NCBI GenBank assembly: GCA_944377825.1
Contig: CALWGA010000040.1
Coordinates: 1 to 55,768, forward strand
Direction of reading: 5' to 3'
DNA: 55,768 nucleotides
Source of the DNA: an uncultured Clostridia bacterium
Lineage (GTDB): Bacteria > Bacillota > Clostridia > Christensenellales > UBA1242
Shown: in pieces, positions 1 through 41,687 of the stretch
Layout of the letters: every line of letters starts with the position of its first letter
How positions within the stretch are numbered: position 1 is the first letter of the stretch
Made by a program: the position numbers and the translations under genes
Notes under the pieces: model-generated
What the model was told of the DNA's origin: nothing
Databases searched by the model: none
The model's input: the letters and a program-made list of their open reading frames with translations, nothing else

Positions 1-2
1 TG

Positions 3-356
3 CGAGCACCGGCACTTGAAGAATATGATGTTTGTAAAAATGACACTCTAGAAAATTGGAAAGAAATGATTGAATGTTTAGACAGTGGCAAAAACTATTT
101 TAGAGATAATATGGAAGTTGAAACATCAATGCTTGAAGATTATTTTAAATTTGATATATTTAATCATCTTAACATCAAAGAAGATGTAAAACTTATCTAT
201 TGTAGCGAAGATATTTCTGTGAGCAATGACAACATTTTCAAGTTAGCAAAATTAAAAAATTGGGAATTGTTTGAAGTTAAAGGTGCCGACCATTTTTGCA
301 GACGAGAACAAGATATTGAAAGAATAACAAACTTGTTTCTTGATATTTTGAAATGA
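3..356 (+). CDS. alpha/beta hydrolase family protein, 5'-truncated by window edge
   Basis: Frame is open from base 3 (RAPALEEY...). The C-terminal region has an acidic residue after a strand (LIYCSEDISV) and GADH, resembling the catalytic Asp/His of alpha/beta hydrolases. Confidence 0.5.
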   Translation, partial: RAPALEEYDVCKNDTLENWKEMIECLDSGKNYFRDNMEVETSMLEDYFKFDIFNHLNIKEDVKLIYCSEDISVSNDNIFKLAKLKNWELFEVKGADHFCRREQDIERITNLFLDILK

Positions 357-415
357 TTGATAAAAAATTATATTGATTGATTTATTTAATAAGGCACTTT
401 TTATTTCAACATAAT

Positions 416-498
416 AAATCTATCCACAACTCTTCACTGAACGCGACGAGCGTTTCTTCGCTGGAAGGCTTGCCTTCCCTTCTCTTTTCACTTTTTTT
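416..498 (+). repeat. CTTCACT-heptamer/hairpin array, copy A
   Basis: AAATCTATCCAC..CTTCACT-[GAACGC gacga GCGTTT]-CTTCGCT-[GGAAGG cttg CCTTCC]-CTTCTCT-TTTCACT. Confidence 0.75.
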
Positions 499-539
499 GA
501 TTCTATTCTAAAAGAGTTTTTATTTGAATAAAATATTCT

Positions 540-1076
540 ATGAAAAAGGGTTCGGTTCGGTGGGCATTTAAAGTCTTTGTGCTGTCACTGTCGCTTTCCA
601 TTGTTTTTAGTTTAATGTCGCAGAGTTTGTTGCCGACATTATCTTCTTTTTTCTCTATCTTTGTAATTATCTTTTTCATCTTTGTGGCGGTGGTGTTTGA
701 CATGATCGCGGTTGCTTTCACAACGATAAACGAAGATAAACTCTTGCCATACAAAGACAAAAAGGGCTACAATATGGCTCTCTCGCTATGTCGAAATGCT
801 GACAAGGTTTCCTCTTTCGGCGGAGATGTTGTGGGAGATATTTGCGGAATTTTGAGTGGAGCGGGCGGTGTGAGTTTAGTTCTCAACATGCACCTTGAAG
901 GCGAACAAGTTAACCTTCTTGTGACTTGCTTAGTAAGCAGTCTTATTGCGGGAATAACAATCTTTTGCAAGGCAATCATGAAAAGTTATTCCATTGAAAA
1001 TTGCGCTAAAATCGCCATAAAAACCGGCTCATATTTAGAGTTTGGTAGAAAAAAAGAAAAGAATAAAAAACATTAG
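540..1076 (+). CDS. conserved clostridial membrane protein (CNNM/CorB transmembrane-like)
   Basis: About 4 hydrophobic segments. Motifs FDMIAVA and ADKVSSFGGDVVGDICGILSG are typical of this family as I recall it. Confidence 0.6.
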   Translation: MKKGSVRWAFKVFVLSLSLSIVFSLMSQSLLPTLSSFFSIFVIIFFIFVAVVFDMIAVAFTTINEDKLLPYKDKKGYNMALSLCRNADKVSSFGGDVVGDICGILSGAGGVSLVLNMHLEGEQVNLLVTCLVSSLIAGITIFCKAIMKSYSIENCAKIAIKTGSYLEFGRKKEKNKKH

Positions 1077-1095
1077 GACAAAGTGAATACAAAAA

Positions 1096-1155
1096 AAGGA
1101 AGAGTGAAGAGTTAAGGCGAACCGCTGGTTCGCAGTGAAGAACTGTGGAAGATTT
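1096..1155 (-). repeat. CTTCACT-heptamer/hairpin array, copy B (inverted)
   Basis: On +: AAGGAAG-AGTGAAG-AGTTAAG-[GCGAACC gct GGTTCGC]-AGTGAAG-AACTGTGGAAGATTT. Confidence 0.75.
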
Positions 1156-1221
1156 TAAAATAGAATATCATTTCTTTATTAAAACCACATTTCTCACAAC
1201 GCCACACTTTCAAACTCTCAA

Positions 1222-1484
1222 TCAATTTTTGATTTTGTGAGAGGAAGGGCTTTGCCCGGCGAGCATAAATCAAAAATCACAAATGTGGCACTCCGAAAAT
1301 GTTTATCATTTTTGGAGATAAGGAGTAAACAAACGAATGGTAAGTGATTTGACGTATGGCAAATCACGAAATGAAGTGCTGTTTACGACGCGGAAGAGGA
1401 ATGGGATGAGAAACCAACGGAGTAGCGGTTAGAAAAATTTTAATTTTTCGTGCCCGCGTTAAGCAAAGTTGGTGTCCGCACCAA
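1222..1484 (+). repeat. ~260-bp dispersed structured intergenic element, copy 1
   Basis: Aligns end to end with the reverse complement of 41431-41687. Contains several hairpins and ends in TTGGTG-TCCG-CACCAA. Confidence 0.9.
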
Positions 1485-1491
1485 AATTTGC

Positions 1492-1520
1492 TTTACAAAG
1501 CGTTTTTAAAATGCTATAAT
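1492..1520 (+). promoter_or_regulatory. sigma-A promoter (probably leaderless transcript)
   Basis: TTTACA-17-TATAAT with extended TG; ATG lies 7 nt after the -10 box; no Shine-Dalgarno. Confidence 0.65.
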
Positions 1521-1527
1521 ACCATGT

Positions 1528-2544
1528 ATGGAAAATTTTTATGATGCAATTTTGGATGCGTTAGTGGATGTTTTCAAGATGATGCCTATTCTCTTTTTGG
1601 CATATCTTCTTGTTTCATACCTTTCGCACGACCATAATCATAAATTTTATGGCTTTCTCAGCAAAAAGAAAAGAACAAGCGTACTTTACGCTTCTTTTTT
1701 GGGTTGCATTCCACAGTGCGGTTTCAGTTCTGTTATTGCTGACCTATATTCAAGGCAAAAGGTGACACTCGGCACGCTGGTTGCGGTGTTTGTGGCAACA
1801 AGTGATGAGGCAATTCCAATCATGATTGCCACGCCGAGCCAAATTTTAAATATGCTCCTTTTAATCGGCATAAAGATAGTTTTGGCGCTTCTTTGGGGCT
1901 ATGGCATCGACTTTGTGGTGGAAATTTGCTCTAAATTAAAAAAGAAAAAGGTGGCAAATGCTACGGCAAAAAAGTTAGACGAAAACGCTAGCGGAACAAA
2001 GGAGTTTTCTCATGCGGAAAATGACCATGTCGACAGTCACGAGTTAAGCGAAGATCACCACCACATACACGAGTGCGGACATATACACAGTGACACCTGC
2101 GACGAGCATTGCCACCATGACGAACAATGCTGTGTTGACAACATCTTTTTGGATGCCTTTAAGCATACATTGGAGATTGCTATCTATGTTTTCATTGCAA
2201 CTTTTATCATAAATCTACTTATCAACTATTTCACGCTTGACATCTTCACAACAATTTTAACCGACAATGGTATTATTCAAATTCTTATCGCGTGCGTGGT
2301 TGGGCTTATTCCAAACTGCGCTTCATCTGTTTTACTTGTCGAACTCTTCACGGTTGGCGCGCTTTCATTTCCAGCACTTGTTGCGGGACTTTCGACAGGC
2401 GCAGGCGTGGGACTTATCATTCTTATTACCAAAAACAAGCATCCACTTAAAAACATCGGCATCCTTTTCTTGCAGTTCTCTATCGGTGTTGTAAGTGGTT
2501 TGATAATTTATGGCATATTTGAACTTTGCGGATTTACATTATAA
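1528..2544 (+). CDS. putative manganese/heavy-metal transporter (10-TM permease with His-rich loop)
   Basis: Motifs GCIPQCGFS, ATSDEAIP and GLIPNCASS; multiple TM segments; central His/Cys-rich loop. Confidence 0.8.
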   Translation: MENFYDAILDALVDVFKMMPILFLAYLLVSYLSHDHNHKFYGFLSKKKRTSVLYASFLGCIPQCGFSSVIADLYSRQKVTLGTLVAVFVATSDEAIPIMIATPSQILNMLLLIGIKIVLALLWGYGIDFVVEICSKLKKKKVANATAKKLDENASGTKEFSHAENDHVDSHELSEDHHHIHECGHIHSDTCDEHCHHDEQCCVDNIFLDAFKHTLEIAIYVFIATFIINLLINYFTLDIFTTILTDNGIIQILIACVVGLIPNCASSVLLVELFTVGALSFPALVAGLSTGAGVGLIILITKNKHPLKNIGILFLQFSIGVVSGLIIYGIFELCGFTL

Positions 2545-2723
2545 TGATATTGTTTTTTACTTTATAGAAAAGTAAAGACAACTTTATAAATTATATTAAA
2601 TATCCAATAAACATCCAAAATTAGTTTGGTTTGTTTGGGTGACAATGCCACTTTCTATAAAATAGTTTCTTAATTAAAAATCATAAAATGTGACAATGTC
2701 ACAAATTTGTGTTGAAAAACGCT

Positions 2724-2931
2724 TGCAAAATCTATTTTTATATGTTATAATCATTTCGTCATTGGACAAATAAGCACTCAAAGCAAATTTTTAAACAGGT
2801 TGCCTGAACGCTTGCAAACTTTGGTTATTTATCTTAATTTTTGAATTTGTTTGCAGGTAAAAGAGTAATCTTGGGTTGGTTTAAAGAGTTAAAACTTTGG
2901 GGAAGGACAAAAACTAGGAGGTAAAAAAATT
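2724..2931 (+). promoter_or_regulatory. rpsB promoter and long structured 5' leader (candidate S2 autoregulatory leader)
   Basis: TTGCAA-17-TATAAT with extended TG. Nested pairings CTCAAAG/CTTTGGG, TTTTTAAAC/GTTTAAAGA and CTTGCAAAC/GTTTGCAGG. SD AGGAGG. Confidence 0.55.
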
Positions 2932-3837
2932 ATGTCAGTTATTTCAATGAAACAACTTCTTGAGGCTGGTGTTCATTTCGGTCACCAAACAAGAAAGTGG
3001 AACCCTAAGATGAAGGAATACATCTTCACTGCAAGAAATGATATTCACATCTTAAATCTGGAACTCACATCAGAGCAAATCGACAAGGCATACAGTTTTG
3101 TTCGCGATGTTGTGACTTCTGGAAAGAGCGTGCTTTTTGTTGGAACAAAGAAGCAGGCACAAGAGGCAGTTAAAGAGGAGGCAGAGCGTTGCGGAATGTT
3201 CTACATCAACACTCGTTGGCTCGGCGGAACTTTAACTAACTTTAAAACAATTAGAAACAGAATTGAGAGATTAAACAAACTCAATCAAATGGAAAAGGTG
3301 GGCGAGTTCGACCTTCTTCCAAAGAAAGAAGTTGCTCTTTTAAAGCAAGAAAGAGACAAACTCGAAAAGAATCTCGGCGGAATTAAGGATATGCATGAAC
3401 TGCCAGGCGTGTTATTCGTTGTTGACCCAACCAACGAAAAAATCTGCGTTCATGAAGCAAACATCCTAAACATTCCAGTTGTATCACTTGTTGACACAAA
3501 CTGCGACCCATCAAATGTCACAGTGGTTATTCCTGGAAATGATGACGCTATCCGCTCTGTTAAACTCATTGCAAGCGCGATTGCAGACGCTGTTATCGAA
3601 GCAGGAGAGGGCGTTTCCATGCAGAAGAACGAAGAAGAGGAAGACGAGAAGGTTGACCTTGAAAGTTTACTCACAGAGGCAAAGCCTAGTCTAGAACTTG
3701 CCGAGGCAGGCGAGGAGGTTAAAAAGAAAAAGCCTAAGAAAAAACCTGCTAAAAAGGCAGAAAAGACCGAGAAAACAGAAGAAAAGAAAGAAGATGTAAA
3801 AGAAGAAAAAGTTGAAGAAAATAAGGACGCTGAATAG
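2932..3837 (+). CDS. rpsB: 30S ribosomal protein S2 (with Lys/Glu-rich C-terminal tail)
   Basis: [27 protein letters not shown]; [10 protein letters not shown]. Confidence 0.99.
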
Positions 3838-3860
3838 TCCTATTTAAAAGGAGATTGATT

Positions 3861-4520
3861 ATGAATTTTACTGCACAAGATGTTGCAAAATTAAGACAAC
3901 AAACAGGCGTTGGCATGATGGAATGCAAAAAGGCGCTTACTGATGCTAACGGAGATTTTGAGAAGGCAATCGTTCTTCTTCGTGAAAGAGGACTTAAAGC
4001 CGTTGATAAAAAGCAAAACAGAATTGCATCTGAGGGGCTTGTTGCTTCTTACATTCACATGGGTGGAAAGATTGGAGTTTTGGTTGAAGTTAACTGCGAA
4101 ACAGACTTCGTGGCAAAGAGCGATGATTTCCAAGTTTTAGTTAAGGATATCGCTATGCAAATCGCTGCTGCAAACCCAAAATATGTTCGTGAAGAGGAGG
4201 TAGACCCAGCGGAACTTGAAAGCGAAAAGGAAATTTTGAAGGTGCAAGCGCTTAACGAAGGTAAACCTGCAAACATCGTTGAAAGAATGATTGAAGGAAG
4301 AATTAAAAAGTATTATGAAGAGGTATGCCTTCTTGACCAACCATTCGTGAAGGATAGCAGTAAAAAAATTAAAGATATCTTGACCGAGGCAACTCTAAAA
4401 ATCGGCGAAAAAATCTCAGTTAGACGTTTTGTTCGTTACGAACTTGGCGAGGGACTCGAAAAGAGAAATGATAATCTTGCAGAAGAAGTTGCAAAACAAG
4501 TTGCAAGCGTAAATAAATAA
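3861..4520 (+). CDS. tsf: elongation factor Ts (short form)
   Basis: GMMECKKAL, EVNCETDFV, RRFVRYELGEG; start reassigned to ATG 3861 after AAGGAG. Confidence 0.98.
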   Translation: MNFTAQDVAKLRQQTGVGMMECKKALTDANGDFEKAIVLLRERGLKAVDKKQNRIASEGLVASYIHMGGKIGVLVEVNCETDFVAKSDDFQVLVKDIAMQIAAANPKYVREEEVDPAELESEKEILKVQALNEGKPANIVERMIEGRIKKYYEEVCLLDQPFVKDSSKKIKDILTEATLKIGEKISVRRFVRYELGEGLEKRNDNLAEEVAKQVASVNK

Positions 4521-4521
4521 G

Positions 4522-4552
4522 AAAAAAGGATAGAAAACTTCTATCCTTTTTT
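4522..4552 (+). terminator. intrinsic terminator after tsf
   Basis: AAAAAAGGATAGAA-aac-TTCTATCCTTTTTT. Confidence 0.85.
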
Positions 4553-4591
4553 AGTGAAGAGTGAGAGAAAAAGGAAGAAGTAAAAGTGAAG
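4553..4591 (-). repeat. degenerate AGTGAAG heptamer run (copy D, no hairpins)
   Basis: AGTGAAG-AGTGAGA-GAAAAAG-GAAGAAG-TAAA-AGTGAAG on +. Confidence 0.5.
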
Positions 4592-4713
4592 AGTTTTAGA
4601 CAGTATTACTTATGATTGCAGGACAAAACACTCACAAAATTGAAATATTTTAGAGTGCGAGGATATCGTCTTTGAAAAAAAATGGTTTTGGTTTATATAT
4701 TAAAAGCATTATA

Positions 4714-4809
4714 AAATCTTTCCACCACTGAAAATCTTTGATTTTCCTTCACTGTGAACCCATGGTTCACCTTCACTAGAAGTCGCAAGACTTCTCTTCA
4801 CTTTTCACT
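4714..4809 (+). repeat. CTTCACT-heptamer/hairpin array, copy C
   Basis: AAATCTTTCCAC-CACT-[GAAAATC ttt GATTTTC]-CTTCACT-[GTGAACC cat GGTTCAC]-CTTCACT-[AGAAGTC gcaa GACTTCT]-CTTCACT-TTTCACT. Confidence 0.85.
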
Positions 4810-4814
4810 TTAAT

Positions 4815-4848
4815 AAAAAAAGTTGAACGAGCATAGTTCAACTTTTTT
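4815..4848 (-). terminator. intrinsic (bidirectional-type) terminator after rpmB
   Basis: AAAAAAGTTGAAC-gagcata-GTTCAACTTTTTT. Confidence 0.85.
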
Positions 4849-5023
4849 AGTTAGCCTTTTTGTTTGCGGTTTTGATGCATTTTGTGCAAGCCTTAACTCT
4901 CTTTCCGTTAATTTCTGTTTCTTGAAGATTAGCATCATATTTTCTATTAGCCTTGTTGTTTGCATGGCTGACAGTTTTTCCGTCCATCTTGCCTTTTCCG
5001 CAGATTTCACAAACTCTACTCAT
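4847..5023 (-). CDS. rpmB: 50S ribosomal protein L28 (58 aa, not in ORF track)
   Basis: Manual translation MSRVCEICGKGKMDGKTVSHANNKANRKYDANLQETEINGKRVKACTKCIKTANKKAN; SD AAGGAG; divergent from yloU-fakA as usual in Firmicutes. Confidence 0.97.
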   Translation of the reverse strand: MSRVCEICGKGKMDGKTVSHANNKANRKYDANLQETEINGKRVKACTKCIKTANKKAN

Positions 5024-5474
5024 TTCCTTTCTCCTTTTATGATTTTATTTACGCGTTTTATTTTAGCACACTTTTATAAAAAAATCAACTATTTTTTCCA
5101 TTTAGTTGTTAAAAATTATCTACTAAGCCAAATTTTCTTAATAGTTGATAGTGAAAGAGGTGTGACAAATATGAATAATTGGTTATTATCAAGGCATATA
5201 AAGTATTAAGCGTAGGAGAATTTTTGACAGTTTTTGAAAGCGCAGATTTTGGTAAATTTTACAAATTAAAACAATATATTTAAACTTAAAAATATTTTGA
5301 AATATTTTTGAAAAAAATATATTTTTTATTTGATTTTGCTTGCGAAAATTTATCATATGTTGTATGATATAGATAGGCAATAGTATTTTGAGTTTTCAAG
5401 ATTTTTAAATATGCCTAGTGAACATAGAGAGTTTTCATTCTATGTTTCAAGCATTGTTCTATCGGAGGAAACTT

Positions 5475-28098: not shown

Positions 28099-28191
28099 AA
28101 CAACCTATTTTAACATTTTTTACAAATATGTCAAAATAAATAAGGCAATTTACTTGACAAAATTTTGCTGTTATTTTATACTATCCATGTA

Positions 28192-28422
28192 AAAACGATG
28201 ATGAAAGACTAGTAGGTTTGTCATTTTTCCACAGAGAGCCCTTTTTGCTGAGATAGGGCGAAAAACACAAATTGAATTCACTTTCTAGTTGCTCCTTGAA
28301 CGGAAAACAAGTAGGGGATGTCGCGCGGGCAGGCGTAATTGCTTTAATAAGGTGCCTTTTGGCATGAAATTAGGTGGTACCACGATTTGATAATCGTCCT
28401 AATATTTTGGGGCGATTTTTTT
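28192..28422 (+). promoter_or_regulatory. Phe T-box riboswitch leader
   Basis: Downstream of TTGACA-17-TATACT. Stem I motifs AGAGA and GCTGAG; specifier GAA-TTC-A (Phe, 28277-28279); T-box AATTAGGTGGTACCACG; terminator AATCGTCCTAA..TTGGGGCGATT-TTTTT. Confidence 0.95.
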
Positions 28423-41430: not shown

Positions 41431-41687
41431 TTGGTGCGGACACCAACTACGCTTTTACGCCGGCACGGAAAATTAAAAATTTTTCTAACGGTTGCTCCGA
41501 TGGTTTCGCAATCCTCTTCGGCGTCATAAACGGCACTTCATTTCGTGATTTGTCTTACACCAAATCACTTACCATTCGTTTGTTTACTCCTTATCTCCAA
41601 AAATGGCATTTTCGGAGTGCCACATTTTGAGATTTTTGATTTATGCTCGTTGAACACAGTTCTACACTTCGCAAAATCAAAAATTGA
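41431..41687 (-). repeat. ~260-bp dispersed structured intergenic element, copy 2 (inverted)
   Basis: Reverse complement matches 1222-1484; starts immediately after the ruvB stop codon. Confidence 0.9.

Follow-up and report, generated by a model that had tools for sequence, protein, structure and literature searches.

What kind of element is a short intergenic array in which a constant heptamer alternates with perfect hairpins of changing sequence? The array lies at 4714-4809 of the window, by which we mean the whole analyzed stretch of 55,768 nucleotides from an uncultured Clostridia bacterium. A first-pass annotation, made from the letters alone, had described a periodic array of CTTCACT linkers and variable hairpins, and the sequence agreed with that description base for base, with 3 perfect 7-bp stems and periods of 24 and 25 nt (Table 1). 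The other features reported there were likewise present: recurrences of the pattern at 416-498 (+) and 1082-1160 (-), the second with the hairpin GCGAACC/GGTTCGC, an AGTGAAG run at 4553-4591, and, as supported by Pfam and by folds, a location between the convergent genes tsf and rpmB, outside both of their terminators.

The identities of tsf (3855-4520), rpmB (4847-5023, minus strand), and rpsB were backed by Pfam. The array sits between the terminator-like hairpins of tsf (4522-4552) and rpmB (about 4815-4849), the latter of which also precedes rpmB in 4 related genomes, here called G104, G099, G053, and G082. RNA folding returned exactly the 3 hairpins and the rpmB terminator (-35.4 kcal/mol, z -5.4). 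On the tsf side, AGTGAAG (in plus-strand reading) occurs at 4553-4559 and 4585-4591, and when 4553-4809 was folded as one unit, the AGUGAAG run was predicted to pair with the CUUCACU linkers while the hairpins branch out (z -8.3). The segment at 4609-4709 aligned to 4 copies of a larger module, B, with scores of 53 to 69, compared with a maximum of 44 in 200 shuffles, and contains 2 back-to-back promoter-like sites, 4672-4701 (+) and 4676-4647 (-), which are consensus matches only.

Hairpin 3 with its linkers (query 571-610) had matches of 95% to 98% identity at other loci of the genome, and DNA contigs from 3 runs ended abruptly at 4780-4799, as is expected for a repeat longer than the word of the assembler. 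It was also observed that contigs of 1 RNA run and 2 DNA runs carry a family-like hairpin of 16 letters beyond 4591, followed by a head like that at 1133-1155, so that other strains have a longer array on the tsf side.

Table 1. Repeat features and neighboring elements in the window, with positions and strands.
Feature	Position	Strand	Remarks
TATAAAAT box	4710-4717	+	Part of head module
Head TCCACCACT	4718-4729	+	Variant of family consensus TAAAATCTTCCACAACT
Head module, box and head	4710..4729	+	One of 57 heads in the genome
Hairpin 1, GAAAATC/TTT/GATTTTC	4730-4746	+	Followed by CTTCACT 4747-4753
Hairpin 2, GTGAACC/CAT/GGTTCAC	4754-4770	+	Followed by CTTCACT 4771-4777
Hairpin 3, AGAAGTC/GCAA/GACTTCT	4778-4795	+	Followed by CTTCACT 4796-4802
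Tail heptamer TTTCACT	4803-4809	+	Closes array 4730..4809
Bidirectional terminator-like hairpin, shared with rpmB	4815..4849	.	From fold; outside the repeat
Diverged 3' part of module B	4609..4709	+	Local alignment to 4 B copies
Hairpin-free partner arm	4553..4603	-	Pairs head-to-head with the plus-strand array
Parts of partner arm		-	Degenerate head 4592-4603, CTTCACT 4591-4585, pyrimidine-rich filler, CTTCACT 4559-4553
Second array	411..499	+	CATAAT box, head 416-431, CTTCACT 432-438, hairpin 439-455, CTTCGCT
Second array, remainder	After CTTCGCT	+	Hairpin 463-478, CTTCTCT, TTTCACT, T-run
Third array	1082..1160	-	TAAAAT box and head 1160-1141, CTTCACT 1140-1134
Third array, remainder		-	Hairpin GCGAACC/AGC/GGTTCGC 1133-1117, CTTAACT, CTTCACT 1109-1103, tail
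A-D'-B composite upstream of third array	1156..1487	-	A 1487-1392, D' 1391-1290, B 1289-1156
Second A-D'-B composite	41431..41687	+	No array behind it

The heptamer was found 20 times in the window, compared with 6.55 expected and a maximum of 13 in 100 shuffles. The assembly from which the window is taken (G000; 852,688 bases in 55 contigs, 37% G+C, 76% complete) contains 330 copies, at a density of 1.40 per kb in intergenic DNA (crudely delimited) versus 0.20 per kb in open reading frames. There were 60 clusters of heptamers; once the 2 that fell within genes had been removed, 58 arrays remained, with a total of 82 hairpins; 9 arrays had no hairpin, 25 had 1, 15 had 2, and 9 had 3. The arrays follow a polar grammar, in which an AT-rich TAAAAT-like box and a head (consensus TCCACAACT) are followed by CTTCACT linkers with or without a hairpin (7-bp stem, loop of 3 to 4 nt) and by a tail of the TTTCACT type, and all modules of an array share a single polarity. 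Within the arrays, CTTCACT was counted 162 times and TTTCACT 36 times, while each other heptamer was seen at most 8 times. A unit is often ended by a small CAAACGC...GCGTTTG hairpin, after which a new head may come. Pure tandem runs of the heptamer and one 17-nt tandem duplication were also present, and identical modules occurred at several loci of the genome.

Among 43 exact CTTCACT-N17/18-CTTCACT units in G000, 29 contained a perfect stem, 9 a stem with 1 mismatch, and 2 a stem with 2 mismatches, while 3 were stemless. Shuffled spacers gave 0.15 stems per replicate, compared with the 38 of 43 observed at no more than 1 mismatch, and the reversed pattern gave 0 to 1 units in every genome searched, compared with 43 in G000; a chance origin is therefore excluded. 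The pattern search that the first-pass annotation had proposed recovered many further copies, here and in related genomes, and its description of the locus as a modular element is supported.

To describe the hairpins, we analyzed 100 units, 62 from G000 and 38 from loci of 6 relatives. The loops were of 3 nt in 83 units, 4 nt in 14, and 5 nt in 3, and covariation was seen at each stem position; at position 2, for example, the pairs were G-C in 36 units, A-U in 35, C-G in 20, and U-A in 6. The 100 units had 35 distinct 5' arms, which follow the pattern G-R-A-A-R-Y-C and can be grouped in some dozen classes. The geometry is thus conserved and the sequence is variable within a vocabulary, so that the earlier proposal that hairpin size is conserved and sequence is not holds for the geometry and the covariation, but not for the sequence, which is drawn from that limited set.

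Since a perfect palindrome is identical on both strands, a functional strand can be named only from loops and wobble pairs. GNRA loops were found among 9 of the 14 four-base loops on the CTTCACT strand and in none on the opposite strand, but 8 of the 9 belonged to one class. Of 700 pairs, 48 were not of the Watson-Crick type, with 22 G-T versus 12 A-C on the CTTCACT strand. The GNRA loops and the G-T excess hint weakly at selection at the RNA level; as a means of naming the functional strand they were rejected as too weak and non-independent.

The arrays are one module type within a larger mosaic. BLAST identified 23 copies of module A (about 95 nt), 24 of module D', and 28 of module B, which forms a long hairpin of about 130 nt, in the genome. 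A comes before B, with D' sometimes inserted between them, and B precedes many of the heads; behind B, the arrays occur in both orientations. By inspection against a crude map of open reading frames, about 14 of 21 copies of A begin within about 15 nt past a stop codon and in the orientation of the gene, and A also begins 3 nt past a tRNA-Ala and 3 nt past a tRNA-Met gene, again in the orientation of the gene. Compensatory changes were seen in the folds of A and B across 12 aligned copies. Membership of a known RNA family was rejected: the Rfam covariance models gave no family match for the arrays, with scans of 300-1600 and 4450-4900 far below threshold (best E 0.21), none for A, B, or D', and nothing significant at 1156-1487. 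The sole match at gathering score in the window was a T-box leader at 28189-28404 (+).

The repeat is restricted to a small group of uncultured gut Clostridia. Hairpin-type units were identified in 8 of the 154 species of the genus, with 85 in G082, 43 in G000, 42 in G104, 8 in G099, 4 in G053, and 2 each in G015, G095, and G042, while 13 further genomes of the genus had 1 to 2 pattern matches that were not hairpins by inspection. The pattern search found no hairpin unit in 12 other families of the order. The 15-mer of head plus linker, with at most 1 mismatch, was found 36 times in G104, 18 in G082, 10 in G053, and 9 in G099. In a search of 185,579 species with one genome each, 56 among the 80 loci listed came from 5 records of metagenome-assembled genomes (MAGs) labeled as uncultured Clostridia, whereas the other 24 were singletons in unrelated taxa, 23 of them without a stem. 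Two GC-rich hairpin units flanked by CTTCACT were noted in an Acidimicrobiaceae MAG (L111) and 9 copies of CTTCACT on one strand in a Labilithrix chromosome (L163); both are probably unrelated local repeats. A scan of JGI metagenomes gave 58 loci, 5 of which contained a unit with at most 1 mismatch in the stem, and only 2, from the same assembly (L292 and L310), had the family grammar by inspection. The runs containing the window were from chicken or unspecified gut metagenomes. A phage or plasmid origin was rejected, as no BLAST match was found in phage and plasmid collections and the single match among viral contigs was not a hairpin unit.

To follow the array between related species, we compared the window at 1-5300, which is syntenic in G104, G099, G053, and G082. 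The tsf genes of these array-bearing species are only 85% to 91% identical, yet the heptamer and the head are conserved exactly. The tsf-rpmB junction is confined to this five-species subclade; in the other relatives examined, the 2 genes were located on separate contigs and none of 18 had an array after tsf. Within the subclade the spacer (window 4521-4852; L039, L046, L052, and L056) is a variable slot. In G099 and G053 it is free of arrays and contains a Thy1-family (thyX-type) gene; elsewhere it contains a GT2 glycosyltransferase gene with a minus-strand array of 5 hairpins in G104, a truncated GT2 gene with a minus-strand array of 4 hairpins in G082, and no gene, but the hairpin-free run and the plus-strand array of 3 hairpins, in G000. 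The segment at 1068-1391, with array, B, and D', was missing from the orthologous site in G104 and G053, while G099 and G082 had other minimal units there. The spacer before the gene at 540 contained a plus-strand array in G000 and G104, which at 411..499 is identical in the 2 genomes, and a minus-strand array with other modules in G053, G099, and G082.

For a comparison across the genome, we rebuilt G104 (813,182 bases) and examined 22 true array loci with both flanks on one G104 contig, at flank identities of 81% to 99.7%. Arrays were identical at 4 loci, had the same hairpins and a different tail at 1, differed in module content at 13, and were absent from 3. At several loci, an entire hairpin was exchanged between identical flanks, or its presence or absence was bounded exactly by heptamers; at C26, a GGAAGGC/GCCTTCC hairpin was swapped for GGAAATC/GATTTCT between identical flanks.

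Relative to genes, the 40 array-bearing spacers that could be classified comprised 27 tandem, 11 convergent, and 2 divergent ones, where the baseline was 314, 76, and 76, so that convergent spacers were over-represented and divergent ones under-represented. In tandem contexts, 15 arrays were oriented with the genes and 17 against them, after the removal of 2 false positives in coding sequences.

Among named repeat systems, CRISPR shares with the arrays a regular alternation of constant and variable units and a leader-like head. CRISPR repeats are constant units of about 24 to 48 nt that separate unique spacers. The roles are inverted in the CTTCACT arrays, where the constant unit is unstructured and the variable unit is structured, and there are at most 3 hairpins per array in G000, at about 58 loci. 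Membership of the CRISPR class was rejected, since the constant unit is 7 nt long and the variable units recur at several loci. Cyanobacterial STRRs are tandem repeats of heptamers. The available part of a report on TAACTGA repeats in Beggiatoaceae, Cyanobacteria, and Bacteroidetes describes direct heptamer repeats in many intergenic regions of a patchy set of taxa, with a mechanism that the source gives as not known (PMC4679880). Both resemble the arrays in relying on a specific heptamer, and pure tandem runs occur here too, but the TAACTGA-type repeats are without intercalated hairpins and are mostly located just upstream of start codons.

A closer likeness is to the REP and BIME elements of enterobacteria and pseudomonads, which are also short extragenic palindromes in high copy number, mainly downstream of genes, as are the 82 hairpins in 58 arrays. 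As far as the accessible portions of 2 reports go, these are small extragenic hairpins that form mosaic arrays with short conserved linkers, mostly between convergent or co-directional genes, with compensatory changes that keep the hairpins (PMC2817692, PMC3733652). REP palindromes are described in one of these extracts as having an unpaired conserved GTAG or CGTC tag at one end (PMC3733652). Neither tag was found on either strand of the arrays, in which each hairpin is preceded by ...CACT and followed by CTTC... in the 3' direction. REPs also make up just one or a few sequence families per genome, alternate in orientation, and, in the GTAG type, are associated with RAYT transposases, whereas the CTTCACT arrays have diverse hairpins, one polarity per array, and invariant heptamer separators. 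The co-occurrence of RAYT genes suggested in the first-pass annotation was not observed, as PF01797 (Y1_Tnp) had no matches in the 5 array-bearing genomes G000, G082, G104, G099, and G053 (76% to 99% complete), in a search where the control was positive in 6 of 14 genomes. With both tests, tag and RAYT, negative, we place the arrays among the mosaic repeats, as a variant, and in no named family.

The neisserial intergenic mosaic elements (NIME; dRS3 plus RS), in the part of the source available, consist of a short constant unit in alternation with variable units, of which there are over 100 families; their arrays vary in number and length among strains, lie beside variable genes, and were proposed to have a recombinational origin, in which a site-specific recombinase would use the constant unit as its target (PMC1797815). 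In NIME, however, the constant unit is a 20-bp palindrome and the variable unit is 50 to 150 bp, as opposed to an unstructured 7-mer and a hairpin of 17 to 18 nt in our arrays, and the dRS3 of NIME is a known phage integration site, to which nothing comparable was found for the CTTCACT arrays. BOX modules are 45 to 59 nt long. Compared by description, they are conserved in sequence and are without the grammar of a 7-nt linker and interchangeable hairpins and without head-to-head pairing. The sections available from Croucher et al. describe BOX, RUP, and SPRITE of Streptococcus pneumoniae as elements without a transposase of their own, transcribed with their neighbors and judged to be parasitic; BOX (boxA-boxB(n)-boxC) is polar and modular, and its internal modules vary in number; the elements are plentiful in one species and sparser in its sister, and the 3 elements are, in that text, almost absent outside these 2 species (PMC3049150). 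The placement and orientation of array-bearing spacers resemble the pattern described there (PMC3049150). No published description of the CTTCACT-hairpin family was found in the literature searched, supplements apart.

The array most likely behaves as fast-reshuffling selfish DNA and not as a gene. The reading that we prefer, with moderate confidence, is that it represents a single copy of an interspersed repeat that is non-coding, modular, and restricted to one lineage, similar in kind to BIME, NIME, and BOX, that is reshuffled at the DNA level. The clade-restricted expansion, the neutral orientation, the avoidance of promoter regions, the sharing of modules, and their turnover all point to a repeat that has proliferated recently. 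Of the 3 options offered by the first-pass annotation, that of a REP-like mobile repeat fits best because the family has expanded in one clade, turns over rapidly, and lies at the 3' ends of genes, although REP proper is ruled against by the missing tag and the RAYT result.

Under the interspersed-repeat reading, the family would have multiplied in a few related species and would persist beside the 3' ends of genes, where it may be least harmful, and reshuffling at the DNA level would be far faster than point substitution. Hairpins flanked by short direct repeats are a classical substrate of slipped mispairing. A hairpin between 7-nt direct repeats could thereby stimulate the loss and duplication of modules, while the common head, linkers, and modules could promote template switching or ectopic conversion between arrays, which would account for the module swaps and the flips in orientation. 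Intrastrand template switching in quasi-palindromes may also keep the arms complementary without selection on RNA, and effects at the RNA level, such as stable 3' hairpins or a weak terminator formed by the last hairpin and the U-rich tail, would be by-products. The exact conservation of the heptamer and head suggests, nevertheless, that something recognizes them.

An alternative that we consider unlikely is that the arrays are the arms of foldback-type elements or the substrates of a dedicated recombinase or transposase, an enzyme that would find its site in the heptamer or the head and there swap, add, or flip hairpin cassettes, as a miniature analogue of NIME/dRS3 or of integron attC logic. 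It agrees with the invariance of the heptamer and head across species, with the module swaps between identical flanks, with the change of orientation at one orthologous spacer, and with the recombinase proposed for the constant unit in the accessible text on NIME (PMC1797815). It also agrees with the arrangement of close pairs, defined as arrays no more than 400 nt apart in G000 and G104, of which 13 were head-to-head, including that at 4553-4809, 4 tandem, and 0 tail-to-tail. This 13:0 order is not explained by random recombination and, together with the conservation of the heptamer and head, leaves room for a role at the RNA level or for a recognition system dedicated to the arrays. When the close pairs were considered as MITEs, 13 of the 17 consisted of head-to-head arms; at the loci compared, defined termini, a target-site duplication, and an empty site with clean borders were all absent. 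This counts against the interspersed-repeat reading as well, under which transposition stays hypothetical. An inverton reading of the 4553-4809 pair was rejected, because no opposite-strand joint was present among those listed at 4591-4747 in 3 DNA runs, in which contigs span the center of the pair in the reference orientation.

The search for a partner enzyme also argues against such a system. Besides Y1_Tnp, neither IS110 (PF01548) nor TnpB (PF07282) was found in G000, G104, G082, G099, or G053, 3 of which are assemblies of 76% to 80% completeness; the lone PF07282 match was below the cut-off and within a frame of 730 amino acids. A reverse transcriptase gene with an RVT_1 domain in a 346-aa open frame was observed at L257:1501-2112 (G104:C35) and in L256 (G053:C18), and was rejected as a partner because RVT_1 was found only in G104 and G053 and not in G000, G099, or G082, the richest genome. 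Only one tyrosine recombinase, a single conserved gene, was common to all 5 genomes at a high score; we take it to be a putative housekeeping enzyme of the Xer type. In G000, this gene (C18:6149-7353, minus strand) has an array directly upstream and co-oriented; as a specific lead it was rejected.

An orphan protein of about 940 to 1,060 amino acids was encoded at G000:C43:3774-6773 (-) and, in G104, at L259:1501-4311, with no Pfam family and no usable match in the protein atlas. Its first 136 residues were 97% identical between G000 and G104 and the remainder about 42%; judged from these sequences, the protein appears to be hypervariable or mosaic. Of the 154 genomes of the genus, 7 had the gene and 6 of these 7 also had arrays, a co-distribution that is confounded by kinship. 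In G104, the gene for the 937-aa protein is flanked by inverted arrays, and arrays adjoin the gene only in G104 and G000; an autonomous element around it was rejected, as the homologs in G099, G053, G082, and G095, 4 of the 6 genomes, had no arrays within 1.5 kb. Should the heptamer and head nonetheless be the crossover sites of a new recombination system, or the arms of a foldback transposon with an enzyme of a novel family, which we regard as improbable, small hairpin cassettes would be exchanged, added, and flipped by this system, which would drive the extreme variability of intergenic spacers, the turnover of accessory genes by gain and loss, and changes in gene order in a clade of gut Clostridia with genomes of about 1 Mb.

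It is equally doubtful that the arrays are cis elements at the 3' ends of genes selected by the host, acting as leaky terminators, insulators, or barriers to 3' exonucleases, as has been proposed for REP. The enrichment of convergent and depletion of divergent spacers are in line with such a role, as are the many array tails that abut stop codons and the palindromic nature of the hairpins, which could function in either orientation. In the terminator scan, the hairpins at 463-478 and 4778-4795 qualified, each being a last hairpin followed by CUUCACUUUU. Transcription was assessed from assembled contigs, in which stretches without RNA cover are uninformative (for example, 601-900 and 4801-5100 in X17); one contig from an RNA library (2,608 nt, about 5% divergent) covered 1-502 and ended there, while DNA contigs continued. 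This single study gives a weak hint that the upstream gene and the array at 416-498 share a transcript, the end of which lies at the U-rich tail. But hairpin-type units are missing from 145 of the other 153 species in the genus, orthologous genes freely gain and lose arrays, the array at 4714-4809 lies beyond the genes' own terminators on both sides, and the reverse orientation leaves the hairpins without a U-tract.

Least probable is that the unit of head, array, and tail is a small RNA gene with a TAAAAT-box promoter and with single-stranded CUUCACU linkers that would offer Rho or an RNA-binding protein many binding sites at once, as a platform or a decoy: in 36 of the 57 heads a TAAAAT-like box, TAAAAT being the -10 hexamer of promoters seen in relatives, stands 2 to 5 nt before the head, promoter-like sites lie directly upstream of all 3 arrays in the window, 2 of these arrays run into terminators, the independence of orientation from neighboring genes fits autonomous units, and the GNRA loops are confined to the CTTCACT strand, but a TAAAAT/TATAAT-like box within 18 nt upstream of 36 of the 57 heads compares with 42% of random intergenic 18-mers, promoter-like sites are frequent in this AT-rich DNA (17 versus 10.4 expected), no consistent -35 element was seen by inspection, internal heads follow immediately on another unit, only 11 of the 58 arrays had a terminator-like site at the tail or past it (compared with 7% of random intergenic windows), the number and identity of modules differ between sister species, and the sole RNA evidence is a single contig, which runs on without a break from the upstream gene. 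The lack of an orientation bias and the presence of terminators in just 11 of the 58 arrays argue against a general strand-specific role at the RNA level.

Modular interspersed repeats such as REP/BIME, NIME, and BOX have been described in a small number of well-studied pathogens, and there is still debate over how they spread and what they do. As an interspersed repeat, the heptamer-hairpin family has an unusually simple grammar, consisting of one 7-mer and a small vocabulary of hairpins, and resides in very small genomes. It explains assembly breaks, variable spacers, and apparently novel structured RNAs in these metagenome-assembled genomes, and should be masked ahead of non-coding RNA discovery in this clade. 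The exchange of modules that is visible between sister species makes it a tractable system for studying how arrays grow, shrink, and move without a recognizable transposase.
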